Notes: generated by a model not told the origin, from the sequence alone. A stretch of DNA of 64,000 bases from Candidatus Bathyarchaeota archaeon (GCA_043826455.1 JBDRQD010000036.1:24795-88794); one strand, 5' to 3'; positions 49,206 through 64,000 are shown, numbered from the stretch's first letter. Program-made: numbers and translations.

Positions 49206-49287
49206 AAGCTGACTATAGATTGGGGATATTAAAAGGAGTCCTAAAACCCCTTCAGGAAAGGGGGATCATGGAAAAATTAAACCTGGG

Positions 49288-49363
49288 TGGAGCCCCGAGC
49301 GGGATTCGAACCCGCGACCTACAACTTACGAGGCTGCCGCTCTGACCGCTGAGCTACCGGGGC
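49288..49363 (-). tRNA. tRNA-Thr(CGT), CCA encoded
   Basis: Reverse complement GCCCCGGTAGCTCAGCGGTCAGAGCGGCAGCCT-CGT-AAGTTGTAGGTCGCGGGTTCGAATCCCGCTCGGGGCTCCA. Confidence 0.93.
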
Positions 49364-49409
49364 GCTATGAACCATAGATAAGAATAGGGATTTAAGAGAT
49401 GCTGTCAGG

Positions 49410-50573
49410 CTACCCGGGGTAGCTGATGACTCCCTTGGAGACCAGCTCCTTGATCTTCTCATCGCTGAACCCCATGAGCCTGCCCAGTATCTCGTTGTTG
49501 TTCTGCCCCAGGACGGGTGCAGGCGTCTTCATCTGGGCCGGCGTCTCCGAGAACTTGACGGGGAAAGTGATGAGCTTGATCCGCCCCGCCTTGGGGTGAT
49601 CCATCTCTATGAACATGTCCCTAGCGTTGATGTGTGGGTCAGCCACCGTCTCGTCCACGTGGAGGATGGGGGCGCAGGGAAGCTCCATGCCCGTATAGTA
49701 GGCCACGGCCTCGTCTCGCGTCATGGTGGCCGTCTTCTCCCTCAGCATCTCCTCTGTGACCTGGTCGTGCTCGACTCCCATGTGCTTCACTATCCTGTCC
49801 ATAGCCCTGGGCCCGAAGGCCGTCATCCTTATCCACTTCTCGTCCTTGGTCTTGAATATCCCTCCGGCTCCCCTACCCCGCGGGTACTTCTCCCGGAGCT
49901 CCAGGGGCTTCAGGCCGGAGAGGAGGTACCCGGTGATGGCTGTGTTGTAGGCCACCATGCAGTCCAGCTGGGCCACGTCGATCATCTGGCCTATGCCTGT
50001 CTTGTCCCTGTACCTCAACGCCATTAGGATGGCCATGACGGCCATGGTGCCCGGACCCAGGTCCCCGTAGGCCTGAGCCATCTCTATAGGCGGTCCCTTG
50101 GGGTCATGGTTCTCTCCTGTCAGCATGGTGTGGCCGCTCATGGCCTCAGCGATCATGGCGTAGCTCCTCCACTCCCTGTAGGGCCCGTACTGGCCGAAGC
50201 CGCTGAGGGCCGCGTAGATGATACCCGGGTTCAGCTCCTTCAGCACCTCGTAGCCCAGGCCCAGGTCCTCCATGGTGCCGGGGCTGAAGTTCTGGACCAC
50301 CACGTCGCTCTTCTTCACCAGCTCCTTGAATATGGCCAGGCCCTCAGGGTCCTTCAGGTTGAGAGTCAGGTCCTTCTTGTTCAGGTTCAGGTGGTGGAAC
50401 GTGTAGCTGGCTCCGCCGAAGAGGGCGCCCTCGGCGAGCCTGTCTATGGCGCCCCAGGGGGGCTCGACTCTTATGACTTCAGCGCCCATGTCGGCCATCA
50501 TCATGGTACACCAGGGGCCAAACCATACGTGGGTCAGGTCCAGGACCCTGATGTCTTCAAGCGGCATCTTCAT
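49410..50573 (-). CDS. Family III CoA-transferase (CaiB/BaiF)
   Basis: RVLDLT...GP, DMGAEVIRVE, NFSPG, SGFGQYGP and GQMIDV motifs. Confidence 0.92.
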   Translation of the reverse strand: MKMPLEDIRVLDLTHVWFGPWCTMMMADMGAEVIRVEPPWGAIDRLAEGALFGGASYTFHHLNLNKKDLTLNLKDPEGLAIFKELVKKSDVVVQNFSPGTMEDLGLGYEVLKELNPGIIYAALSGFGQYGPYREWRSYAMIAEAMSGHTMLTGENHDPKGPPIEMAQAYGDLGPGTMAVMAILMALRYRDKTGIGQMIDVAQLDCMVAYNTAITGYLLSGLKPLELREKYPRGRGAGGIFKTKDEKWIRMTAFGPRAMDRIVKHMGVEHDQVTEEMLREKTATMTRDEAVAYYTGMELPCAPILHVDETVADPHINARDMFIEMDHPKAGRIKLITFPVKFSETPAQMKTPAPVLGQNNNEILGRLMGFSDEKIKELVSKGVISYPG

Positions 50574-52605: not shown

Positions 52606-52610
52606 AAGGG

Positions 52611-52645
52611 TGGCGCCGCCATTCGGCGGTTGAACTCAGGTTAAC
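52611..52645 (-). other. Candidate att site: degenerate 3' half of a tRNA-Asn(GTT)-like gene
   Basis: The minus strand reads GTTAACC-TGA-GTTCAA-CCGCCGAA-TGGCGGCG-CCA, exactly at the host/element boundary. Confidence 0.45.
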
Positions 52646-52738: not shown

Positions 52739-53113
52739 CTACGTCGGTTTTGACATAACTCGTCCATCCCTTATGACCCACCCCTTCGCACGGAGAGGTT
52801 CCACCACCTTGGGAAGGCTCAATGCGAATCTGATATGTTCGCAGTCGGCCTCCTCGCATGCCTCGCAGTAGGGGCCTTCTCTGAAGTAGACGTCCACGAT
52901 CCGCTTCCTCAGGTTATCGTAGATGGTGGCGTGGTCGTCGTATACGTTGTAGTGGGTGAACCGGGGGTACTCGTCCTGGTACACCTTCATGAGGCAGTAG
53001 TCTACCGCGTGCTGGTAGTTGTGGAAGACCCGTTCACCTATCTTCTGGTCAATCCACTCCAGGACCTCGCCCTGGACGGTGATAGTTACCCTCTTCTTAT
53101 CCTCCTCGGCCAC
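52739..53113 (-). CDS. Ribbon-helix-helix regulator with a C-terminal CxxC-x4-CxH Zn site (repressor-like)
   Basis: RVTITV..EVLEWID...YQHAVDY (RHH) and YCEACEEADCEH. Confidence 0.7.
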   Translation of the reverse strand: MAEEDKKRVTITVQGEVLEWIDQKIGERVFHNYQHAVDYCLMKVYQDEYPRFTHYNVYDDHATIYDNLRKRIVDVYFREGPYCEACEEADCEHIRFALSLPKVVEPLRAKGWVIRDGRVMSKPT

Positions 53114-53128
53114 TTACACTCACCTCTC

Positions 53129-53194
53129 TGCATCAATTTTAATCAGTACACAGATATATGTTTTATGCCTCACGTTGATGCATTTAGCATCACG
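53129..53194. promoter_or_regulatory. Operator repeats between the divergent RHH genes
   Basis: TGCATCAA (53129) and TTGATGCA (53175) form an inverted pair; TGATGC-N5-GCATCA at 53176-53192; GCCTCACG/GCATCACG direct repeat 20 bp apart. Confidence 0.55.
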
Positions 53195-53239
53195 AATATA
53201 TTTAAATAGATTCTTAGGGTCTAGATCTGATGAGGATTG

Positions 53240-53428
53240 ATGATTTTGGTGAGGGTTACGGTGAGCGTGGATGACACCCTCATGGCCCAGATCCAGCGGC
53301 TGGCGGAGGCCGAGATGCGCAGCAAGGCCAACATGATGAAGATTCTCATCATGGAGGCCGTGGAGGCCAGAGACGGCCAGAAGACTGGAGCACACCGGGA
53401 GGGAGCGAAGCGTGGAAAGCAATGTTAG
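53240..53428 (+). CDS. CopG/Arc-type ribbon-helix-helix protein (Cro-like position)
   Basis: VRVTVSVDDTL...IQRLAEAEMRSKANMMKILI.EA. Confidence 0.85.
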   Translation: MILVRVTVSVDDTLMAQIQRLAEAEMRSKANMMKILIMEAVEARDGQKTGAHREGAKRGKQC

Positions 53429-56006: not shown

Positions 56007-56143
56007 CGCAGGAGAAGATCAACAGCGAGGACAGGTGCCCCCCAGCCTTCACCGAAGCATGCGTGCTGGAGGACGGGACCCGGTGCCCCTACTACCACGA
56101 CGGCGAGTGCGTCAAAGCCCCAGAGGAGGCTGATGGGCAGTGA
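56003..56143 (+). CDS. 46-aa Cys-rich viral ORF (MTQEKINSEDRCPPAF...)
   Basis: ATGA and GTGA overlaps with both neighbours; four Cys. Confidence 0.55.
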   Translation: MTQEKINSEDRCPPAFTEACVLEDGTRCPYYHDGECVKAPEEADGQ

Positions 56144-57255
56144 CGCAGGAAACCAGCATAGTTGAGGCTTCCAAGGCCCCGGCGGGTGACCTTCTGCCCA
56201 TCCTGGACCCGAAGGCCGCCAAGGCGGCGTACCAGGCGTACCTGGAGCTGTGCCAGGCCATCCTTGTGCCCTACGACAAGCGCATCGTCAGAGACGGCGT
56301 GGTGATCCAGGAGAGCGACTACGCCCGTATACCCGTCAGGCGCCAGGTGGGCGGCAGGTGGATCACGGAGTACGTGGACGCCCCCAAGAAGTCGGCTTGG
56401 CGTAAGCTGGCCAGGTTCTACGGCGTCAGCACCGAGATCGTGGAGAAGAGCAAGGAGGTCCACAAGGACGGCAGCTTCACGTACCACTACTCGGTGCGGG
56501 CCTCTGCCTGCGGGGTGAACATGGAGGGTGAGGGCAGCTGCACCAGCACCGAGAAGGGAGGCAGGAGCGAACACGAGACCCGAGCCACCGCCCACACCCG
56601 GGCCAAGAGCCGGGCCATCAGCGACCTGATAGGCTTCGGCCAGGTGAGCGCCGAGGAGTACAGCACATACGAGGATGATCCGCCGCCCAAGCCGGTGGAG
56701 GCAGAGACCCACGTCGTGGAGCCCACACCCAGGGCAAAGGCGGAAACCAGTGCCGAGAAGCCCGTCGTTGACACTGCTGAGAAGACGGTTAGAGACACCC
56801 TCACGGTTAACGGCCTGGGGGCTGATTACGTTCTCATCTACAGGTACGGGGACATTGTGCGTGTCGAGCCTCAGCCGGGGTTCCCTGATAGGTGGGGGGA
56901 CTTCAACAGGGTTCTGAGGCTCCTGAAGGCAGTGTGGATCGACGAGTCTTTATGGTGGGAGGTGCCCGCAGGCGACCTTGAACACCTCACCGACAGCGAG
57001 GACGAGGAGTTGGTGTACGGTATCTGGGGTGTGGACTGGAAGCTTAAGGGAGGTGAACCCGCCTTACGGGACTCTTCGTGGGCGTGGGCTTTCGCCTACA
57101 CCCAAGACGGAGATTACGTGCAGGAGCTCAAGCCCCTCGTACAGTACCTGGAGCAGTACGGCAGCCTGGAGACCCAGGGCTACACCGTCACCCTGGGAGG
57201 CCGAGACAAGAGCCTCCTGCAGCTGAAGAAGAACAAGGAGGCGAAGACCGGGTGA
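56140..57255 (+). CDS. Putative single-strand annealing (Rad52/RecT-superfamily-like) recombination protein
   Basis: KKSAWRKLA...EGEGSC...ATAHTRAKSRAISDLIG..VSAEE core, then a P/E/T-rich linker and C-terminal domains; located in the replication module. Confidence 0.5.
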   Translation: MTQETSIVEASKAPAGDLLPILDPKAAKAAYQAYLELCQAILVPYDKRIVRDGVVIQESDYARIPVRRQVGGRWITEYVDAPKKSAWRKLARFYGVSTEIVEKSKEVHKDGSFTYHYSVRASACGVNMEGEGSCTSTEKGGRSEHETRATAHTRAKSRAISDLIGFGQVSAEEYSTYEDDPPPKPVEAETHVVEPTPRAKAETSAEKPVVDTAEKTVRDTLTVNGLGADYVLIYRYGDIVRVEPQPGFPDRWGDFNRVLRLLKAVWIDESLWWEVPAGDLEHLTDSEDEELVYGIWGVDWKLKGGEPALRDSSWAWAFAYTQDGDYVQELKPLVQYLEQYGSLETQGYTVTLGGRDKSLLQLKKNKEAKTG

Positions 57256-58190
57256 CAGAGCCCGAGACTAGGACAGCTGACCTCTGCCCCGAGTGCGGCG
57301 CCTCCCTCCTCCAGGACGATGTCGCCGGCGAGGCGGTGTGCCCGGTGTGCGGCCTAGTGGCCTCAACCCTTATGCTCAGCAGGGGGGCCGAGTGGAGCCT
57401 ACACGAGCCCAGCGACCATGACAGCCTGCCCAGGGCCTCGCCCCTCCTAGTCCCAGCGCTGGCAGCCGACACCACCACCATAAGCAGGTTCTGGAGCCAC
57501 CCCGACCCCGAGACCCGAGCCACCATGCACCGCATCACCCGGATCCAACGCAAGCTCATGGACTCCCAGGACCGCAACTATCACGAGGCCCGAAACATCC
57601 TCATGGCCCTGGCGGACAGGGCAGACACCCCATGGAGGCTGCGCCAACACGCCGCAGCCCTCTACCGCAGAGCACACGTACGCGGCCTGGCTAAGGGCCG
57701 CGCCATCCACAGCATGGTGGCGGGCTGCATATACGCGGCATACCGCCTAGGCGCCCACACACGAACCCTCACCGAGCTGGCGGAAGCCATGGACGTGGAC
57801 CCCAAGGACCTGGCCCTCACTTACCGCCTCCTGTGCACCGGTTTAGGACTCCGCCCGGGTAAGCAGCTGGCCGAGGACCACGCAGCCAGGCTGGCCGAGG
57901 CCCTGCACCTGACGCCTGAGGAGACGCGGGCAGCCCAGGATATGCTGGTGGAGGCCCGCCGCCTGAAGCTCACCGCAGGTCAGCACCCCAGGGGGCTGGC
58001 CGCAGCAGCCGTCTACCTGGCCACGGTGAACACCAGGCCGCATGGGAAGAGGATCAGCCAGAAGATGATAGCCGAGGCAGCCGGTGTCACCGAGGTCACC
58101 GTCAGGAACCAGTACAAGAAGCTCGAAAAAGTCCTCCCCTGTTTTACCAGTTTTACCATCCTTACCGTTTACCAACAAATCGAAGGATGA
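57252..58190 (+). CDS. tfb: Element-encoded transcription initiation factor IIB (TFB) homolog
   Basis: Zn ribbon CPEC...CPVCGLV, GAEW B-reader, two cyclin folds (KGR...AGCIYAA; G..P.GLAAAAVY) and HTH ISQKMIAEAAGVTEVTVRNQYK. GTG 57252 overlaps the upstream stop. Confidence 0.92.
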   Translation: MTEPETRTADLCPECGASLLQDDVAGEAVCPVCGLVASTLMLSRGAEWSLHEPSDHDSLPRASPLLVPALAADTTTISRFWSHPDPETRATMHRITRIQRKLMDSQDRNYHEARNILMALADRADTPWRLRQHAAALYRRAHVRGLAKGRAIHSMVAGCIYAAYRLGAHTRTLTELAEAMDVDPKDLALTYRLLCTGLGLRPGKQLAEDHAARLAEALHLTPEETRAAQDMLVEARRLKLTAGQHPRGLAAAAVYLATVNTRPHGKRISQKMIAEAAGVTEVTVRNQYKKLEKVLPCFTSFTILTVYQQIEG

Positions 58191-58335
58191 TCTCTTGACA
58201 CCGCACCCCTGGGCTCTACCCGTCTCCCCCACGGATTTTTTTCCCGAGGAAAAAGCGGTAAACAGTAAAAACGGTAAAACCAGTAAAAATCCGAGTCGTC
58301 TTTTACCAATTTTACCAGCCTTACCGTTTACCAGT
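58142..58335. repeat. Iteron array: three blocks of four TTTACC-like repeats (+,-,+); candidate replication origin
   Basis: Blocks at 58142-58174 and 58301-58333 are 31/33 identical; block 58255-58289 is an inverted, more diverged copy; 8-9 bp period. Confidence 0.75.
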
Positions 58336-58375: not shown

Positions 58376-60286
58376 ATGAACCCGGTGCTAAGGTTCTACG
58401 TCGTTGAGCACCTGTTCACCAAGGTCCAGGCCACCCACAGCAACCGCCTACAGGGCATAGAGCCCCTGTGGAGCATCTACGCGGCCAAGATGGAGAACGA
58501 GTACCCGCCCATCCTGATATTCGACAAGGAGCGCCGGCTGCGTCCTCAGAGCAGGGAGCTGTGCCTTGCGCCCATAGACGAGTCCGACGGCCTCCTGGAG
58601 TACGTAGGCGGGCTCTCGCCGGCAGCCTACAAGCAGCTAGTCTCGGCCATCAAGGAGAACGGCGTCTACGTTGAGACGGGTGAGGACGCCCCCACCCTGG
58701 ACCAGCTTCTAGCCCGCAGCGGCATATGCTACCGGCCCGTATCACGCATCAGGGACATCTACGAGATTGAGACCCTGGAGTGGGAGCCCTTCGTGGACAG
58801 GCTGATCCGGTGGGACGCCGAGGAGAAGGACCCCCGCCTCTGCCTGGCCCACAAGGCCCAGCTACTCAGGGGCATCGAGCCCAGGCTTAACGCCCACGCC
58901 CTCATAGTCACCAACGCCGGCACCGGGAAGAGCATCCACTACCAGGTGAACGGCATCCCCATAGACAAGGCCACCAAGAACGCCTTCCTGGGCTACGCTA
59001 AGAGCCCCCGCGAGGTTTACAAGGGCACCGTGGACGGCGAGGAGCTTCCCATCGGGGTGGACCAGATCGAGATCGGGGCCTGGGGTATCATGGACTATAT
59101 GTTCAACATCATGGAGTATGGGGAGGCCACGGTGAGCAGCGGGGCCACAAAGTTCCCCGTGAAGAGCTGGTCGCCTTATGCCTTCATGGCGAACCCGCTG
59201 ACGGACGTCGTGAACGTGGAGAAGAGCTTCGGCATCCTCATGGACCACATAAGCAGGAACCCCGCCATAGGTCGACGCTTCGGCGTCCTCATCTACGGCA
59301 CCGACTACGCCATCATCAAGACTAGGAGCACCCCTGAGAGCCTGGATCAGTGGAGGCGTCAGACGGCCTTCTTCCGGGCCATAGAGGAGGCCGCCAGGCC
59401 GGAGCTCCAGAGGATCATGTGGAGCCAGGAGGTGTGGGACTGGATCAATCGTGAGATTCAGGGTTATGCGGAGCGCATGGATCGCATCGCCAAGGGCTGC
59501 AACGACGACACTATACGGGTCTTTTTCATGGAGCATGGGCGGGCTGGGCAGTCGAGGGTAAGGGCGGCGGCCCTTCAGGTGAGCCTAGTGGATTATCTTC
59601 AGGACATAGCCCTTGGCCGGTATAGCTTAGAGGCTATCCTTGACCACGCCGAAGAGGTTCTGCCGGGCTTCACCAGGCTCAACTTGGAGTCGGCTATCAA
59701 CATCGTCCGGAACATCGGGGACGAGAGGCGGTTCATGGCGGAGCACTGGCTGGAGATGTGCCCAGAGTACATGAAGGAGATCGTGTACGCCGTCGAATAC
59801 GCACGGCGAAGCAGTGTGTTGGGCAGCTTCTTCAACCTGGGTGACATAGATTACAGGCCTGCCGCTGAGGGTTACAGCCACCTGAGCGTCTGCATAAGCA
59901 AGCTGGTCAAGCGCAAGCGGGGCCTGGTGGAGTGGAACCAGAGGTGCCGGGAGTACTTCGGGTTCAGCTTTCAGCCCCAGGGCAGCCAGCTACAAGTCAT
60001 CCTGGAGAGCCGCACCCCCGTCGAGTGGTTAAGCCTACCCGGCTACGACAAGCCTAAGGTAGAAGAAGGGGAGGCCGAGACGCCCCACGCGTCCAACATC
60101 CAGGACCTCTACCGTAAGGCGGAGGAGGCGCTAGGGGAGAAAGGCTGGATGTGGGCCGGAGAGTTCTGGGACACCCTGGAGAAGCTAGGCCATCCGCGGA
60201 AGTACGCGGAGTACCCGCTGAAGAACCCTGATAGCCCCGTTGAGTTCGTTGGGTTCAAGGTTCGGCTCAAGGAGGTGAGGCAGTGA
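58376..60286 (+). CDS. Divergent MCM-like AAA+ helicase
   Basis: HALIVTNAGTGKS (Walker A), VDQIE (Walker B), IMEYGEATVSSGA (pre-sensor-1), MANP (sensor 1) and RRF (Arg finger) appear in MCM order. Confidence 0.7.
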   Translation: MNPVLRFYVVEHLFTKVQATHSNRLQGIEPLWSIYAAKMENEYPPILIFDKERRLRPQSRELCLAPIDESDGLLEYVGGLSPAAYKQLVSAIKENGVYVETGEDAPTLDQLLARSGICYRPVSRIRDIYEIETLEWEPFVDRLIRWDAEEKDPRLCLAHKAQLLRGIEPRLNAHALIVTNAGTGKSIHYQVNGIPIDKATKNAFLGYAKSPREVYKGTVDGEELPIGVDQIEIGAWGIMDYMFNIMEYGEATVSSGATKFPVKSWSPYAFMANPLTDVVNVEKSFGILMDHISRNPAIGRRFGVLIYGTDYAIIKTRSTPESLDQWRRQTAFFRAIEEAARPELQRIMWSQEVWDWINREIQGYAERMDRIAKGCNDDTIRVFFMEHGRAGQSRVRAAALQVSLVDYLQDIALGRYSLEAILDHAEEVLPGFTRLNLESAINIVRNIGDERRFMAEHWLEMCPEYMKEIVYAVEYARRSSVLGSFFNLGDIDYRPAAEGYSHLSVCISKLVKRKRGLVEWNQRCREYFGFSFQPQGSQLQVILESRTPVEWLSLPGYDKPKVEEGEAETPHASNIQDLYRKAEEALGEKGWMWAGEFWDTLEKLGHPRKYAEYPLKNPDSPVEFVGFKVRLKEVRQ

Positions 60287-60741
60287 GCTTTCCCAGGACC
60301 CTGTGGAGCAGCGAAAAGTCTGATTGGGGCACACCACTGGAGCTTTACCATGCTCTGGACAGCCACTTCAGGTTCACTCTTGACCCCTGCACCACGCCTG
60401 ACAACCCTCTGGGGACGCCGAAGTACTACACAGTGGAGGACGACGGGCTGGCCAGGAGCTGGGCTGGGGAGCGGGTGTTCGTTAACCCGCCTTACAGTAG
60501 GCGCAGAGACGAGCCGGCCGCATGGGTTAGAAAAGCCTATCTTGAGGCACTTAACGGCGGAGCGGTGTGTGTACTGCTGCTGGCGGCCCGCACCGACACC
60601 GCCTGGTTCCACGACTACTGCAGCCACGGGCTCATCGGCTTCATCCGGGGCCGCCTCAGGTTCCGTGGGGCCAGGAGCAGCGCGCCCTTCCCCAGCATGA
60701 TCGTTGTCTTCGGGGAGGGCTACTGGAGGCTGGAAAGGTGA
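60283..60741 (+). CDS. Phage-type DNA N6-adenine methyltransferase (Dam family)
   Basis: DWGTP, FTLDPC, VFVNPPYS, ARTDT.WF, GRLRF and APFPS motifs. Confidence 0.9.
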   Translation: MSFPRTLWSSEKSDWGTPLELYHALDSHFRFTLDPCTTPDNPLGTPKYYTVEDDGLARSWAGERVFVNPPYSRRRDEPAAWVRKAYLEALNGGAVCVLLLAARTDTAWFHDYCSHGLIGFIRGRLRFRGARSSAPFPSMIVVFGEGYWRLER

Positions 60742-61153: not shown

Positions 61154-61431
61154 TTAGCAGGCTGTCGGGCAGGGTGTTCATGGAGATCAGGGTCGAGCTG
61201 CCTGACGGGAAGCGTGACCTGTACAGTCTCATTAGTAGCTTGGAACGTTACGATGTGGAGATATGGGATGAGATCTATCGGAGGAGGCCGGATAGCCGGG
61301 GCCGTATGGCTTACCGGGAAGCGGAGATCACACTGTGGGTGGACTCCGAAGACTACAAGGCCTTATGCATCACGCTGGGCAAGTTGGCTGGAAACGTAGA
61401 GTACACAACAGTCAAACCAAGAAACAGGTGA
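61150..61431 (+). CDS. Small viral hypothetical protein; last gene of the early operon
   Basis: ATGA overlap and GGAGG SD. Confidence 0.6.
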   Translation: MISRLSGRVFMEIRVELPDGKRDLYSLISSLERYDVEIWDEIYRRRPDSRGRMAYREAEITLWVDSEDYKALCITLGKLAGNVEYTTVKPRNR

Positions 61432-61605
61432 TCTGTGGGTAAAATTAGAGTCTTTACGGTTTGAAAAAAGACATATGTAAACGCATGTGTTCTATCAGGC
61501 TTCATAAATCAATATGAGAACTGTTAATGCTTTATCCGAAACGAATTGTGCGAAGTACATTATTTAGTTAATTAGATATTAACTTGTCTATTTTGAAACT
61601 TTATT

Positions 61606-62571
61606 TTATCTCATTGAGTCGCGAGGAATGTATGGAGAAATTGTTAGAGGTTCAAGTTTCTTCTTTTTAGTTATCATGTCTTCTCGTAAAATCTCAACAC
61701 CAAAGTAATTATCCAATTTACGCTGAATTGCACCTACCTTCTCCAATCTTCTGAGGATCTGGTTTAAACGCATTGGGTTAATATTTCTGCCATAATATTT
61801 TTTATATGAATCAGCTATTGAGGGTTTATTCCTGTAAACAGGCTCCTCCATCTCTAATTCTGGAAGATATATAACACTATCAACCCCAACTGTTTTTTCC
61901 AATATAGTAAGGCCAAATTCATCTCTAAGGGTTGGATACCTAATCTTAATTATATGTGAAAGAAGACTTTTCAGTAACTCCTCATCGGATTTAGATGCTT
62001 TTTCAGTAGAAATGTAAACGTTAGCTGGTACAAAATATGGTTCTTCATATCTAACAATGCCTAGGCTTTCCATTAAATTTACATATCGTCTGATTTTCAG
62101 TTTTTGTTCTTGGGGCTCATACCTTGTCAGATCAGCCTCATGAATTTTATTGTTCTCCATTAAATATTCGAGAATCAACTCAATTTTGTTGAAATGGTTT
62201 CTAAATGACTCAATTTGAATTAATTGATCTGACGAGGCGGAAACCACTATGTTCTCAGCTTGTTGTTTCCAATACTCAAGCATCATTTTAAGATTTTTCA
62301 AACATTCAGTTCCGTAGGTCGTTCGTGTCGGAATTATCTGGAATTGATCATTAAGTGTAATTTGTCCTAGATGCTCTATTTTTAAAACTCGAACTTTATA
62401 ATCAGCTGGTTCTCGATCATCAAAGATGTAGACAGGGTAGTTAGCTCTGATATTTGACAAGTAATAGTTGCCTTTATTGATATACATGGGTGGATCTACC
62501 TTTATGACCTGGCCATATTCTTTAAAGGCAAACCTTTCAACGACTGATTGAGCATCCAATATACTTGTCAT
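61606..62571 (-). CDS. AT-rich hypothetical protein with two winged-helix-like segments
   Basis: IRRYVNLMESLGIV and RLNQILRRLEKVGAI; GGAGG SD lies within the upstream gene's end. Confidence 0.75.
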   Translation of the reverse strand: MTSILDAQSVVERFAFKEYGQVIKVDPPMYINKGNYYLSNIRANYPVYIFDDREPADYKVRVLKIEHLGQITLNDQFQIIPTRTTYGTECLKNLKMMLEYWKQQAENIVVSASSDQLIQIESFRNHFNKIELILEYLMENNKIHEADLTRYEPQEQKLKIRRYVNLMESLGIVRYEEPYFVPANVYISTEKASKSDEELLKSLLSHIIKIRYPTLRDEFGLTILEKTVGVDSVIYLPELEMEEPVYRNKPSIADSYKKYYGRNINPMRLNQILRRLEKVGAIQRKLDNYFGVEILREDMITKKKKLEPLTISPYIPRDSMR

Positions 62572-62574
62572 GTC

Positions 62575-63120
62575 TCATTCCTCCCCCAAGTTAATCAATG
62601 TTTGTTGACCGGTACCACCTATTATTAACTTTATCAACATACCTTTAGGCCCCAACCGTTCTTCCATAAAATGACTTGACTCAGCTTCTCTTTGCCAATA
62701 CTCTTCTTTTTTATAAAGTGGATCTACAAAAAAAATTTTTCTTAGATCTGGGTCATACCCATTAATTACAACCACATGCCAGACATCATCATTGACGATT
62801 TTCTGGGGATCAATCCAAGCTATAATAGGTCTTTCGTCATCAATTTCAGCAGTGATTTCCGTATATCTCCCTGATATTTGTCTCTGAAATTGCATTTTAG
62901 GCCTGGATTTATCTAATAAATTATTGATGAATTCTACATTCCCCGGAACAGTGCCCCAATCTCTTTCTGTACCAATGGTTTTAGCAATTTTACGCATCGA
63001 TAATTTTTTTTGTTTAATATGAAATTTGTCAATTGTATAATTTGTTACAATTTTATAACATGTTGGTTGGCAATACATTTCTTCTGGTTGATGAAAATAG
63101 GGTAGTTTTATCAGCGGCAA
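62575..63120 (-). CDS. C39-like (papain-fold) cysteine peptidase, no signal peptide
   Basis: LPYFHQ.....C (Q-x5-C), RPII, HVVVINGYD and DP motifs. Confidence 0.8.
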   Translation of the reverse strand: MPLIKLPYFHQPEEMYCQPTCYKIVTNYTIDKFHIKQKKLSMRKIAKTIGTERDWGTVPGNVEFINNLLDKSRPKMQFQRQISGRYTEITAEIDDERPIIAWIDPQKIVNDDVWHVVVINGYDPDLRKIFFVDPLYKKEEYWQREAESSHFMEERLGPKGMLIKLIIGGTGQQTLINLGEE

Positions 63121-63460
63121 AGACCTGAATCACATCTTAATAATTTATAATGCATGTTTTTACTATTAATTTATTTTGTCATTGAAACGTATGTGGAAAG
63201 CTAGCTGATCCTGGTTCCAACCTAGGCCTTTTGGCGGGTGGTGCTGAGAAACTGGCCTGTGTGTTGGGTAGTGGCTACACGGGGGGGTACGGTTTGGTAT
63301 GGTATGTGGGGTCGGGAAGCTGGGGGTCTTGTGACTACTTTTTCTTTTAGCTTTTCTCAGTTGAACTAAGATAGTTAACGTGTTTTCAATAAGTTGTCCA
63401 TTTTTTTATTTATCTCTGATTTTTGTTCTTTCGCGATTTTGAGGTAACTTCGTTTAAATC

Positions 63461-63591
63461 TTTATAAGGTGTGCAGGGCAGCCGCCCTCGATTCGGTTGA
63501 CCGCGGCGAGCCGTACAAGAGTAGCTTCTTCCTACCCAACATCTTCGCTGTTAGCAGCTCATCGCGGCCAGCTTGAACACAAGGAGGAAAA
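63461..63591 (+). promoter_or_regulatory. TATA promoter, structured ~100-nt leader and strong SD
   Basis: TTTATAA at 63461; stem CCGCGGCGAGC (63501) / GCTCATCGCGG (63557); AGGAGG at 63582. Confidence 0.5.
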
Positions 63592-64000
63592 ATGGAATTG
63601 AATGAAACACGCCAAGCCCATGTAAAGCGCATACTCACAGTTGCATTCATACTCGGCCTAGTGTTCGCATCCCTAGGCTTCAGCGGAGTCATAACGATAC
63701 CCCTTGCCGAGGGTGCAGCAGCCAGGGTCTTCTTCTCGGCGGTGAGCCCCGACGCAAGCGGCTACCCCGTAGACGGGGCGGTGGGCATCAACGTCAAGTT
63801 CAAGTGGGAGGGCCTATCCGCCAACACCACAGTGAACATACAGCTCTGGAACGCCACCAACATGATGGAGGACCTGGGCAACTACACCGCCAACGGAGAC
63901 GCCTCAGCCAGCGGCACCGAGACCGTCCAGTACACGCCCACCGTGGAACTCACAGAGGAGACCGGCACCACAAGCTACACCCTGAAGATGCTCAGCGGCG
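63592..64000 (+). CDS. Secreted or membrane glycoprotein-like protein, partial; candidate virion protein
   Basis: Not in the ORF track. MELNETRQAHVKRILTVAFILGLVFASLG... has a hydrophobic N-terminus, then a Thr-rich beta-like region with NTT, NAT and NYT sequons; open to the window end. Confidence 0.75.
   Translation, partial: MELNETRQAHVKRILTVAFILGLVFASLGFSGVITIPLAEGAAARVFFSAVSPDASGYPVDGAVGINVKFKWEGLSANTTVNIQLWNATNMMEDLGNYTANGDASASGTETVQYTPTVELTEETGTTSYTLKMLSG

Follow-up and report, generated by a model that had tools for sequence, protein, structure and literature searches.

The 64,000-nt stretch of Candidatus Bathyarchaeota archaeon DNA analysed here (the window; GCA_043826455.1 JBDRQD010000036.1:24795-88794, with positions counted from its start) is the end of contig C36 of the host genome, G000, whose other contigs are named C1-C67. 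Loci are labelled L, database protein clusters and relatives P, and sequencing runs X. The window contains an early operon in which a TFB gene lies directly before an iteron array and a helicase, as the sequence-only reading had described (Table 1); the helicase is MCM-like in its modelled fold. The stop of the upstream gene overlaps the TFB start by 4 nt (GTGA), with a GGAGG 15 nt 5' of the start, and the same type of coupling occurs at 12/16 junctions of the operon, bearing out the claim that TFB is translationally coupled. The TFB gene and its junctions are covered by contigs from other studies (runs X2, X3 and X11). In run X1 the TFB contig has a depth of 14.1 and the flank one of 15.5, a measure that does not equal copy number.

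Table 1. Features of the TFB-bearing element in the window.
Feature	Position	Strand	Details
att core, 17-bp copy of the tRNA-Asn(GTT) 3' end; left element boundary	52610..52626	-	exact match to G000:C67:2147-2163
124-aa gene, divergently transcribed	52739..53113	-	91% identity to a gene of sibling element C12
Predicted early promoter (BRE+TATA), host-type	53193..53208	+	12.5 bits, host tRNA-promoter matrix; C12 counterpart 11.8
RHH regulator, first early-operon gene	53237..53428	+	Pfam RHH_5, E 2.5e-9
371-aa gene coupled to TFB	56140..57255	+	68-74% identical in siblings C52 and C20
Element-encoded TFB, 312 aa	57252..58190	+	GTG start
Zn ribbon (C12, C15, C30, C33), intact	57285..57350	+	8/8 conserved positions
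B-reader and B-linker, residues 44-103, eroded	57381..57560	+	conservation scoring
Two cyclin folds and HTH, residues 104-292	57561..58127	+	Q270, V282, R285 kept; K/R244Q, R287Q
Iteron array, TTTACC/GGTAAA units, direct and inverted	58142..58333	.	33-nt direct repeat (94%) and inverted arms
MCM-like AAA+ helicase, 636 aa	58376..60286	+	model pLDDT 86.5; Foldseek top matches all MCM, E 1e-9
Dam-family adenine methyltransferase	60283..60741	+	Pfam Dam, E 6e-23
Predicted late promoter, host-type	63453..63468	+	BRE 63453-63460, TATA from 63461; 11.4 bits
First gene of late membrane-protein module	63592..64000	+	cut by contig end, continues in C1; 64-82% identical in C37, C52 and C20

Several features place the TFB gene in a mobile element: the att core, an integrase, a replication module, genes in common with sibling elements, and a neighbourhood that recurs around the related TFB at locus L057. 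An intact tRNA-Asn lies on C67, followed by a 400-aa tyrosine integrase, and a contig from run X8 matches the window up to 52626 and then departs. Given the att copy and the intact tRNA-Asn with its integrase, we read the element as integrated at tRNA-Asn, and we infer that C67 and C36 are two ends of one element. The divergent 124-aa gene, which has no Pfam or PHROG family, is likely a regulator, judging by its position. The 371-aa gene is possibly a Sak/Rad52-type annealing protein; it has no Pfam match, SSAP_Sak appears only at 0.85 in Atlas, which makes it a lead, and its Atlas neighbours are viral hypothetical proteins. The late module encodes membrane-anchored proteins and one CAAX-type protease. 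Capsid, terminase and packaging families gave no match among 12 late-module proteins scanned (from C1 and C8, continuing this or sibling elements). Its att site, integrase, replication module and membrane-protein module, which are spread over several contigs, suggest that the element may be a virus.

G000 contains at least four related integrated elements (on C36, C52, C20, C37, C12, C56, C26, C1, C7, C8, C45, C49 and C67). The siblings of the present element are C52 with C12 or C56, C20, and C37, with late modules on C1, C7, C8, C45 and C49. Replication genes are swapped between them: the MCM-like helicase on C36, a D5-type primase-helicase on C20, an unclassified 752-aa protein on C52, and none on C37. 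Together they may constitute a family, not yet described, of enveloped viruses or of integrative elements, with a late module that lacks a Pfam or PHROG capsid match. Between the early and late modules lies a low-GC insert on the minus strand (61431-63450), with genes for a C39-like peptidase (62575-63120; Pfam E 4.5e-12) and for a 321-aa protein with no assigned function (61606-62571). This pair recurs at 25-31% identity in an island on C31, and the insert is possibly a defence or toxin-antitoxin-like cassette. Dispersed repeats of 60-300 nt (at 49250-49570 and on many contigs) occur in tens of copies genome-wide, often at contig ends, and are possibly MITE-like elements. Rfam gave no matches in the window between 52400 and 64000.

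Judged by its sequence, the element protein belongs to the TFB family, yet it is no canonical TFB1. It contains two TFIIB repeats (Pfam PF00382, E 3e-24) and matches PHROG 20431 (E 5e-26). Its ribbon matches Zn_Ribbon_TF (PF08271, E 8e-7) at 28.9 bits, 0.1 bit below the 29-bit cut-off, and against NCBIfam NF001658 it scores 191 bits, where the cut-off is 384 bits. An AlphaFold model built from a 13-sequence alignment has a pLDDT of 75, with residues 39-65 below 50. The model matches TFIIB/TFB structures, its two cyclin repeats having the TFIIB core fold, and it superposes on the P. woesei TFB core (1d3u_B) with an rmsd of 2.7 A over 195 columns and a TM of 0.82 by target. The C-terminal tail is not conserved; we ruled it out as a functional domain, as it is encoded by the first iteron copy, has low pLDDT and is absent from the 94% identical TFB of L014.

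We scored each domain at the positions whose conservation reaches 85% or more among 158 cellular TFBs (10 from the host and 148 from databases, many of them close kin). The element TFB keeps the whole ribbon (8/8 in the host paralogues as well), 23/31 positions of cyclin 1 (host 24-31), 10/13 of cyclin 2 (host 10-13) and 15/17 of the HTH (host 13-16), each within the host range or one position below it. Its B-reader and its B-linker keep 4/11 and 5/10, against 8-11 and 8-10 in the host paralogues, and lack the canonical TFB1 motifs. The claim that all TFB parts are intact was thus right for the ribbon, the GAEW motif of the B-reader, the cyclins and the HTH, but not for the rest of the reader or for the linker. 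Within this region E47, W48, R61, T75 and R94 are kept, R49S, F51H and G63S are changed, and the DKGLST motif and 5+2 residues are lost. In the six other full-length members of the clade described below, the linker is eroded throughout (4-6/10) and the reader spans 5-10 of 11 positions. Clade members resemble one another more closely in cyclin 2 (58%) than the host paralogues do (46%).

Q270, V282 and R285, which we take to be the BRE-reading residues (after the P. woesei structure, with positions mapped onto the element TFB), are present in 158/158 cellular TFBs; Q270 and R285 are invariant in 10/10 clade sequences and V282 in 9/10. Two basic residues kept in 157/158 cellular TFBs are lost (K/R244Q and R287Q), R287Q being found in 6/10 clade sequences. 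These losses, together with a pI of 8.8 (9.3-9.9 for the host TFBs), may mean weaker or altered DNA binding. The element TFB also keeps R165 and R171-T172, presumably the TBP-contacting Arg and Thr. Contacts of a TFB Arg and Thr with TBP are described, with no residue numbers, in the accessible text of PMC7221094. In M. jannaschii TFB, stimulation is driven by the E78-W79-R80 and R90-G94 clusters, and recruitment by E78, W79, F82, R92, V93 and G94 (PMC3025549). Mapped by equal 18-residue spacing, E47, W48 and R61 of the element TFB correspond to E78, W79 and R92, and the rest are changed. On this spacing-based map, 6/9 stimulation-sensitive and 3/6 recruitment-sensitive positions are changed, and the element TFB could therefore be inactive in initiation.

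A protein that bound TBP-DNA and the RNAP dock and opened promoters poorly would act as a competitor or dominant negative, dampening host transcription after induction of the element. This explanation keeps some probability because the promoter-opening parts are the eroded ones: the losses fall mainly in the reader and linker and leave the binding modules in place, and the linker motif GL[STG][TS] is absent from all 8 clade members covering the region but present in 137/158 cellular TFBs. We nevertheless consider it unlikely. E47, R61, T75 and R94 are fixed in every clade member covering them, the TFB of L015 retains 10/11 reader positions, and the host-type promoters of the element itself would suffer as well from a general blocker. 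Erosion of this kind is also compatible with activity in P. furiosus TFB2, which the accessible text of its description portrays as having a divergent reader and linker, weak initiation and poor promoter opening, helped by TFE or pre-melted DNA (PMC13502027). TFB2 differs in being chromosomal and tested, and is likened to the element TFB by description, not by sequence.

Besides the element copy, G000 encodes 10 TFBs (11 matches in total) in apparently chromosomal neighbourhoods. The element TFB is 30-35% identical to all 10, and is thus nearly identical to none of them; among themselves the host TFBs share 38-85% identity. The host set forms three subgroups and is accompanied by three TBPs (G000 L002-L011, L060-L065). 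This expansion is comparable to that of haloarchaea. A TBP gene was not found on the element's own contig.

The closest relatives of the element TFB are six database clusters at 45-87% identity, after which identity drops to at most 39%. To these are added three metagenome loci (L014-L016) among the four found, and, out of 400 other genomes of the class, a single one (G026, L057), giving 2/401 with the source genome; L015 is close to P0004, and L057 equals P0007. A profile search found no further clade member among 8000 candidates scored, and a search of viral contigs returned two distant TFBs (27% and 34%) and no clade members among 268 candidate stretches. In a careful tree of 30 hand-chosen rows, the relatives included form a clade with 100/99 support on a long stem (1.28 changes per column). 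That tree left out P0002, L014-L016, the host paralogues L006 and L009, L013, the ARV3 and YNP1 TFBs and most database matches. The clade lies within a 99/99 group with five of the eight included host paralogues and thaumarchaeal-type TFBs, and apart from L012 and from HRTV-DL1, which is itself a long branch. A quick 72-row tree agrees on the clade (stem of 2.19 changes per column). The phylogeny that had been suggested against the host paralogues thus yields a separate, element-borne clade.

Purifying selection, which had been named as a check, is apparent throughout (dN/dS 0.09-0.42). Against L014, dN/dS is 0.127 by NG86 (95% CI 0.055-0.225) and 0.094 by YN00, over 163 codons, of which 23 are synonymous and 9 non-synonymous differences. 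It is 0.24-0.42 by NG86 in four other pairs, and the bootstrap intervals of all pairs lie below 0.64; YN00 converged in 2/7 pairs, and dS was saturated in 2/8 per-domain tests. A neighbouring gene gives similar values (0.27-0.31). These substitution patterns and the tree indicate that the element TFB is under purifying selection, in a lineage distinct from the host TFBs.

The same data bear on whether the gene is a mere passenger, taken from a host tfb and now in decay or evolving neutrally. Its patchy distribution across the class and its loss of conserved residues would fit such an origin. Against it, dN/dS is well below 1 in 5/5 pairs, the frame is intact and coupled across the clade at 45-94% identity, and the clade is old and monophyletic. 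The genes upstream of TFB are common to the window and L057 even at 45% TFB identity, and the TFBs of L015 and L016 adjoin genes of the same element family. We regard the passenger explanation as largely refuted and hardly credible. With a clade of its own, purifying selection and 30-35% identity to the host TFBs, the gene is therefore no fresh host copy, and identity and tree together rule out a recent capture from this host.

The position of TFB before the iterons raises a possible link to replication. The array is likely a replication origin, and among 29,352 genome windows the two richest in the iteron motif both fall within it. It lies directly 5' of the helicase, with a repeat unit that differs between relatives. 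The helicase itself belongs to a highly diverged family; sequence searches against Pfam, PHROGs, NCBIfam and PDB gave no match and the fold search alone succeeded, with a TM to MCM by Foldseek of only ~0.3 over the full length. In this setting TFB could activate the adjacent origin, through transcription across it or by helping to load the helicase. Its gene is followed at once by origin and helicase, tails resembling iterons are found again in the TFBs of P0002, P0003, P0006 and P0007, contigs from run X11 join TFB to iterons and helicase, and the TFB of HRTV-DL1 also lies in a replication module, between PCNA and primase-helicase. The linkage is broken in both directions, however. Similar arrays precede the same helicase in L019 (with a different repeat unit) and L058, both without TFB, and in L014, L015 and L016 TFB is followed by three other genes without iterons. 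The helicase family is also the larger, with 38 relatives against 6 for TFB. The iterons thus travel with the MCM-like helicase and not with TFB. The gene order indicates that the TFB-iteron association recurs in some relatives but is not obligate, and these swaps rule out TFB as an obligate iteron-binding initiator. We find any replication role very improbable.

The sequence-only reading had proposed that the element TFB acts like a phage sigma factor, redirecting host RNAP to late promoters such as the one with its TATA at 63461; such promoters would then form a class apart from those of the host. To compare promoters, we used a hand-seeded matrix of 16 positions from 42 host tRNA upstream regions. 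Host promoters scored in leave-one-out fashion have a median of 11.4 bits (quartiles 9.1-14.2), and the 99th percentile of background is 9.4. A sigma-like switch would lead one to expect late promoters that differ from the host consensus, and this is not so at 63453-63468: the site scores exactly the host median, with the caveat that it adjoins the low-GC insert, which raises matrix scores. The early site scores slightly above it, in a comparison that covers one element and a tRNA-only matrix. The matching late regions of the TFB-less siblings C52, C20 and C37 score only 3.6, 7.5 and 4.1 bits, so that the late promoter closest to the host type belongs to the TFB-bearing element; a private promoter class would predict the reverse.

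The distribution of the gene points the same way. TFB follows the annealing-like gene in 2/7 readable loci (the window and L057), and not in C52, C20, C26, L075 or L076; L068 and L071 end inside that gene and were left out of the seven. A tblastn search of 13 contigs of the host genome and 9 loci found TFB only in L057, and the sibling elements in G000 carry the same late module without any TFB. From this gene content, TFB is an accessory gene, not core to the element family and dispensable across the siblings. Some evidence does favour a sigma-like switch: TFB is in the early operon, the clade stem is long in both trees, R287Q is clade-specific, cyclin 2 is conserved within the clade, and the late TATA and BRE are unlike those of the three TFB-less sibling contigs. 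Given cellular recognition residues, a late site no different in score from the host median and siblings that do without TFB, the proposal gains no support, and we now think it quite improbable.

The late promoters of the TFB-less siblings (C52 11213-11240, C20 9532-9547 and C37 7576-7591) share the sequence GGG-TATAT(T/A)AA; since their scores lie below the host lower quartile, a separate activator may be required for them. A leader of about 100 nt separates the late TATA from the first late gene (window 63490-63591, L080:11261-11371, L081:9570-9680 and C37 from 7614), with both ends conserved in four sibling elements. When three were folded, the ends paired in a stem of 22 bp that stops close to the ribosome site (consensus -22.9 kcal/mol), with only one pair changed on both sides and no Rfam match. 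The leader may control translation of the late genes or serve as a processing site.

The best explanation, to which we would give an even chance, is a weakened but working accessory TFB that serves host-type promoters together with the TBP and RNAP of the host. The element TFB would be made with the early operon upon induction, join host TBP on ordinary BRE-TATA promoters and recruit host RNA polymerase as a weakened initiation factor that leans on TFE. A replicating element would gain its own TFB supply and shift the balance among the host's 10 paralogues, and any preference for element genes would come from timing, dose or an element-encoded partner rather than from a new BRE. This explanation is consistent with the retention of all three apparent binding modules (ribbon, cyclins and HTH), of the cellular recognition residues and of E47, R61, T75 and R94, with purifying selection, with early and late element promoters predicted to be at host level and no TBP found on the element's contig, and, by analogy, with TFB2, which still initiates despite its divergent reader and linker. 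Against it, the clade-conserved cyclin 2 could reflect a new partner, and there is no obvious shortage of TFB in a host that has 10, leaving the benefit unexplained. A bolder reading makes the clade an element-built alternative factor, whose rewritten B-linker and cyclin 2 surface initiate selectively on element DNA while jamming host promoters, with selectivity arising from an element partner or from replicating, pre-melted templates. We consider this decidedly improbable, more so than a sigma-like switch alone; if true, it would give archaea their first equivalent of the sigma switch of phages, one that in addition shuts the host down.

How does the element TFB compare with known systems? 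With cellular archaeal TFBs (PRK00423/NF001658; 1d3u/1ais; the 10 host paralogues) it shares domain order, length, fold, Zn ligands, the GR motif and the recognition helix. It differs from them in its 30-39% identity, its low NF001658 score, its eroded reader and linker, the K/R244Q and R287Q changes, its location on a mobile element and its iteron-encoded tail. Phage late sigma factors include T4 gp55 and SPO1 gp28/gp34. Like them, the element TFB is an early gene for a promoter-recognition factor using host RNAP, but those factors are essential and read a promoter class closed to the host factor, whereas the element TFB has a host-type recognition helix and predicted host-type promoters and appears dispensable across siblings. 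Sulfolobus TFB3 is truncated. In the accessible text on it, TFB3 is likewise a non-canonical TFB paralogue with a regulatory role, but one that cannot replace TFB and acts in trans (PMC7289017); the element TFB has both cyclins and the HTH.

Full-length, divergent TFBs are also encoded by viruses (the Italian rudiviruses ARV3, MRV1 and SSRV1; HRTV-DL1 ORF43; Sulfolobales virus YNP1; PHROG 20431). Full-length homologues occur in 7/50,697 phage records (three Halorubrum tailed virus, two YNP1 and two ARV3), at 21-27% identity; the YNP1 gene is known from GenBank, and the role proposed for viral TFBs is the one considered here (PMC9501531, PMC10544981). The element TFB differs from these in belonging to a separate lineage, grouped at 99/99 with Bathyarchaeia/Thaumarchaeota-type cellular TFBs and apart from HRTV-DL1, in its host group, and in lying on an element without a recognised capsid gene. 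HRTV-DL1 ORF43 has been proposed to recruit host RNAP and was found in particles, according to the accessible text (PMC10544981), and TFB is listed among the genes exclusive to Italian rudiviruses in the available part of a rudivirus preprint (10.1101/2020.01.16.907410). As far as the accessible parts of two reviews, of 2017 and 2022, go, archaeal viruses rely on host TBP and TFB (PMC5569661), and a preference of viral TFBs for viral promoters is not established (PMC9501531). The main texts of a Bathyarchaeia virus paper (PMC10848311) and a provirus survey (PMC11705971) do not mention TFB or TFIIB, although their supplements may list such genes. In the literature searched, which left most subscription papers outside, we found neither a viral TFB whose function had been tested nor any account of the element clade.

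Virus-encoded TFBs and, as a question, the idea of redirected transcription are thus already in print, as the accessible part of the 2022 review attests (PMC9501531); what the present clade adds is a separate lineage with a remodelled reader and linker. Since the host is apparently uncultured, the question is no easier to test here than in rudiviruses and haloviruses that are in culture. Archaeal viruses need the RNA polymerase of their host, and the clade represents a separate capture of TFB. It also offers a natural comparison, between sibling elements with and without TFB in one genome, and between variants that keep from 4 to 10 of the 11 B-reader positions.
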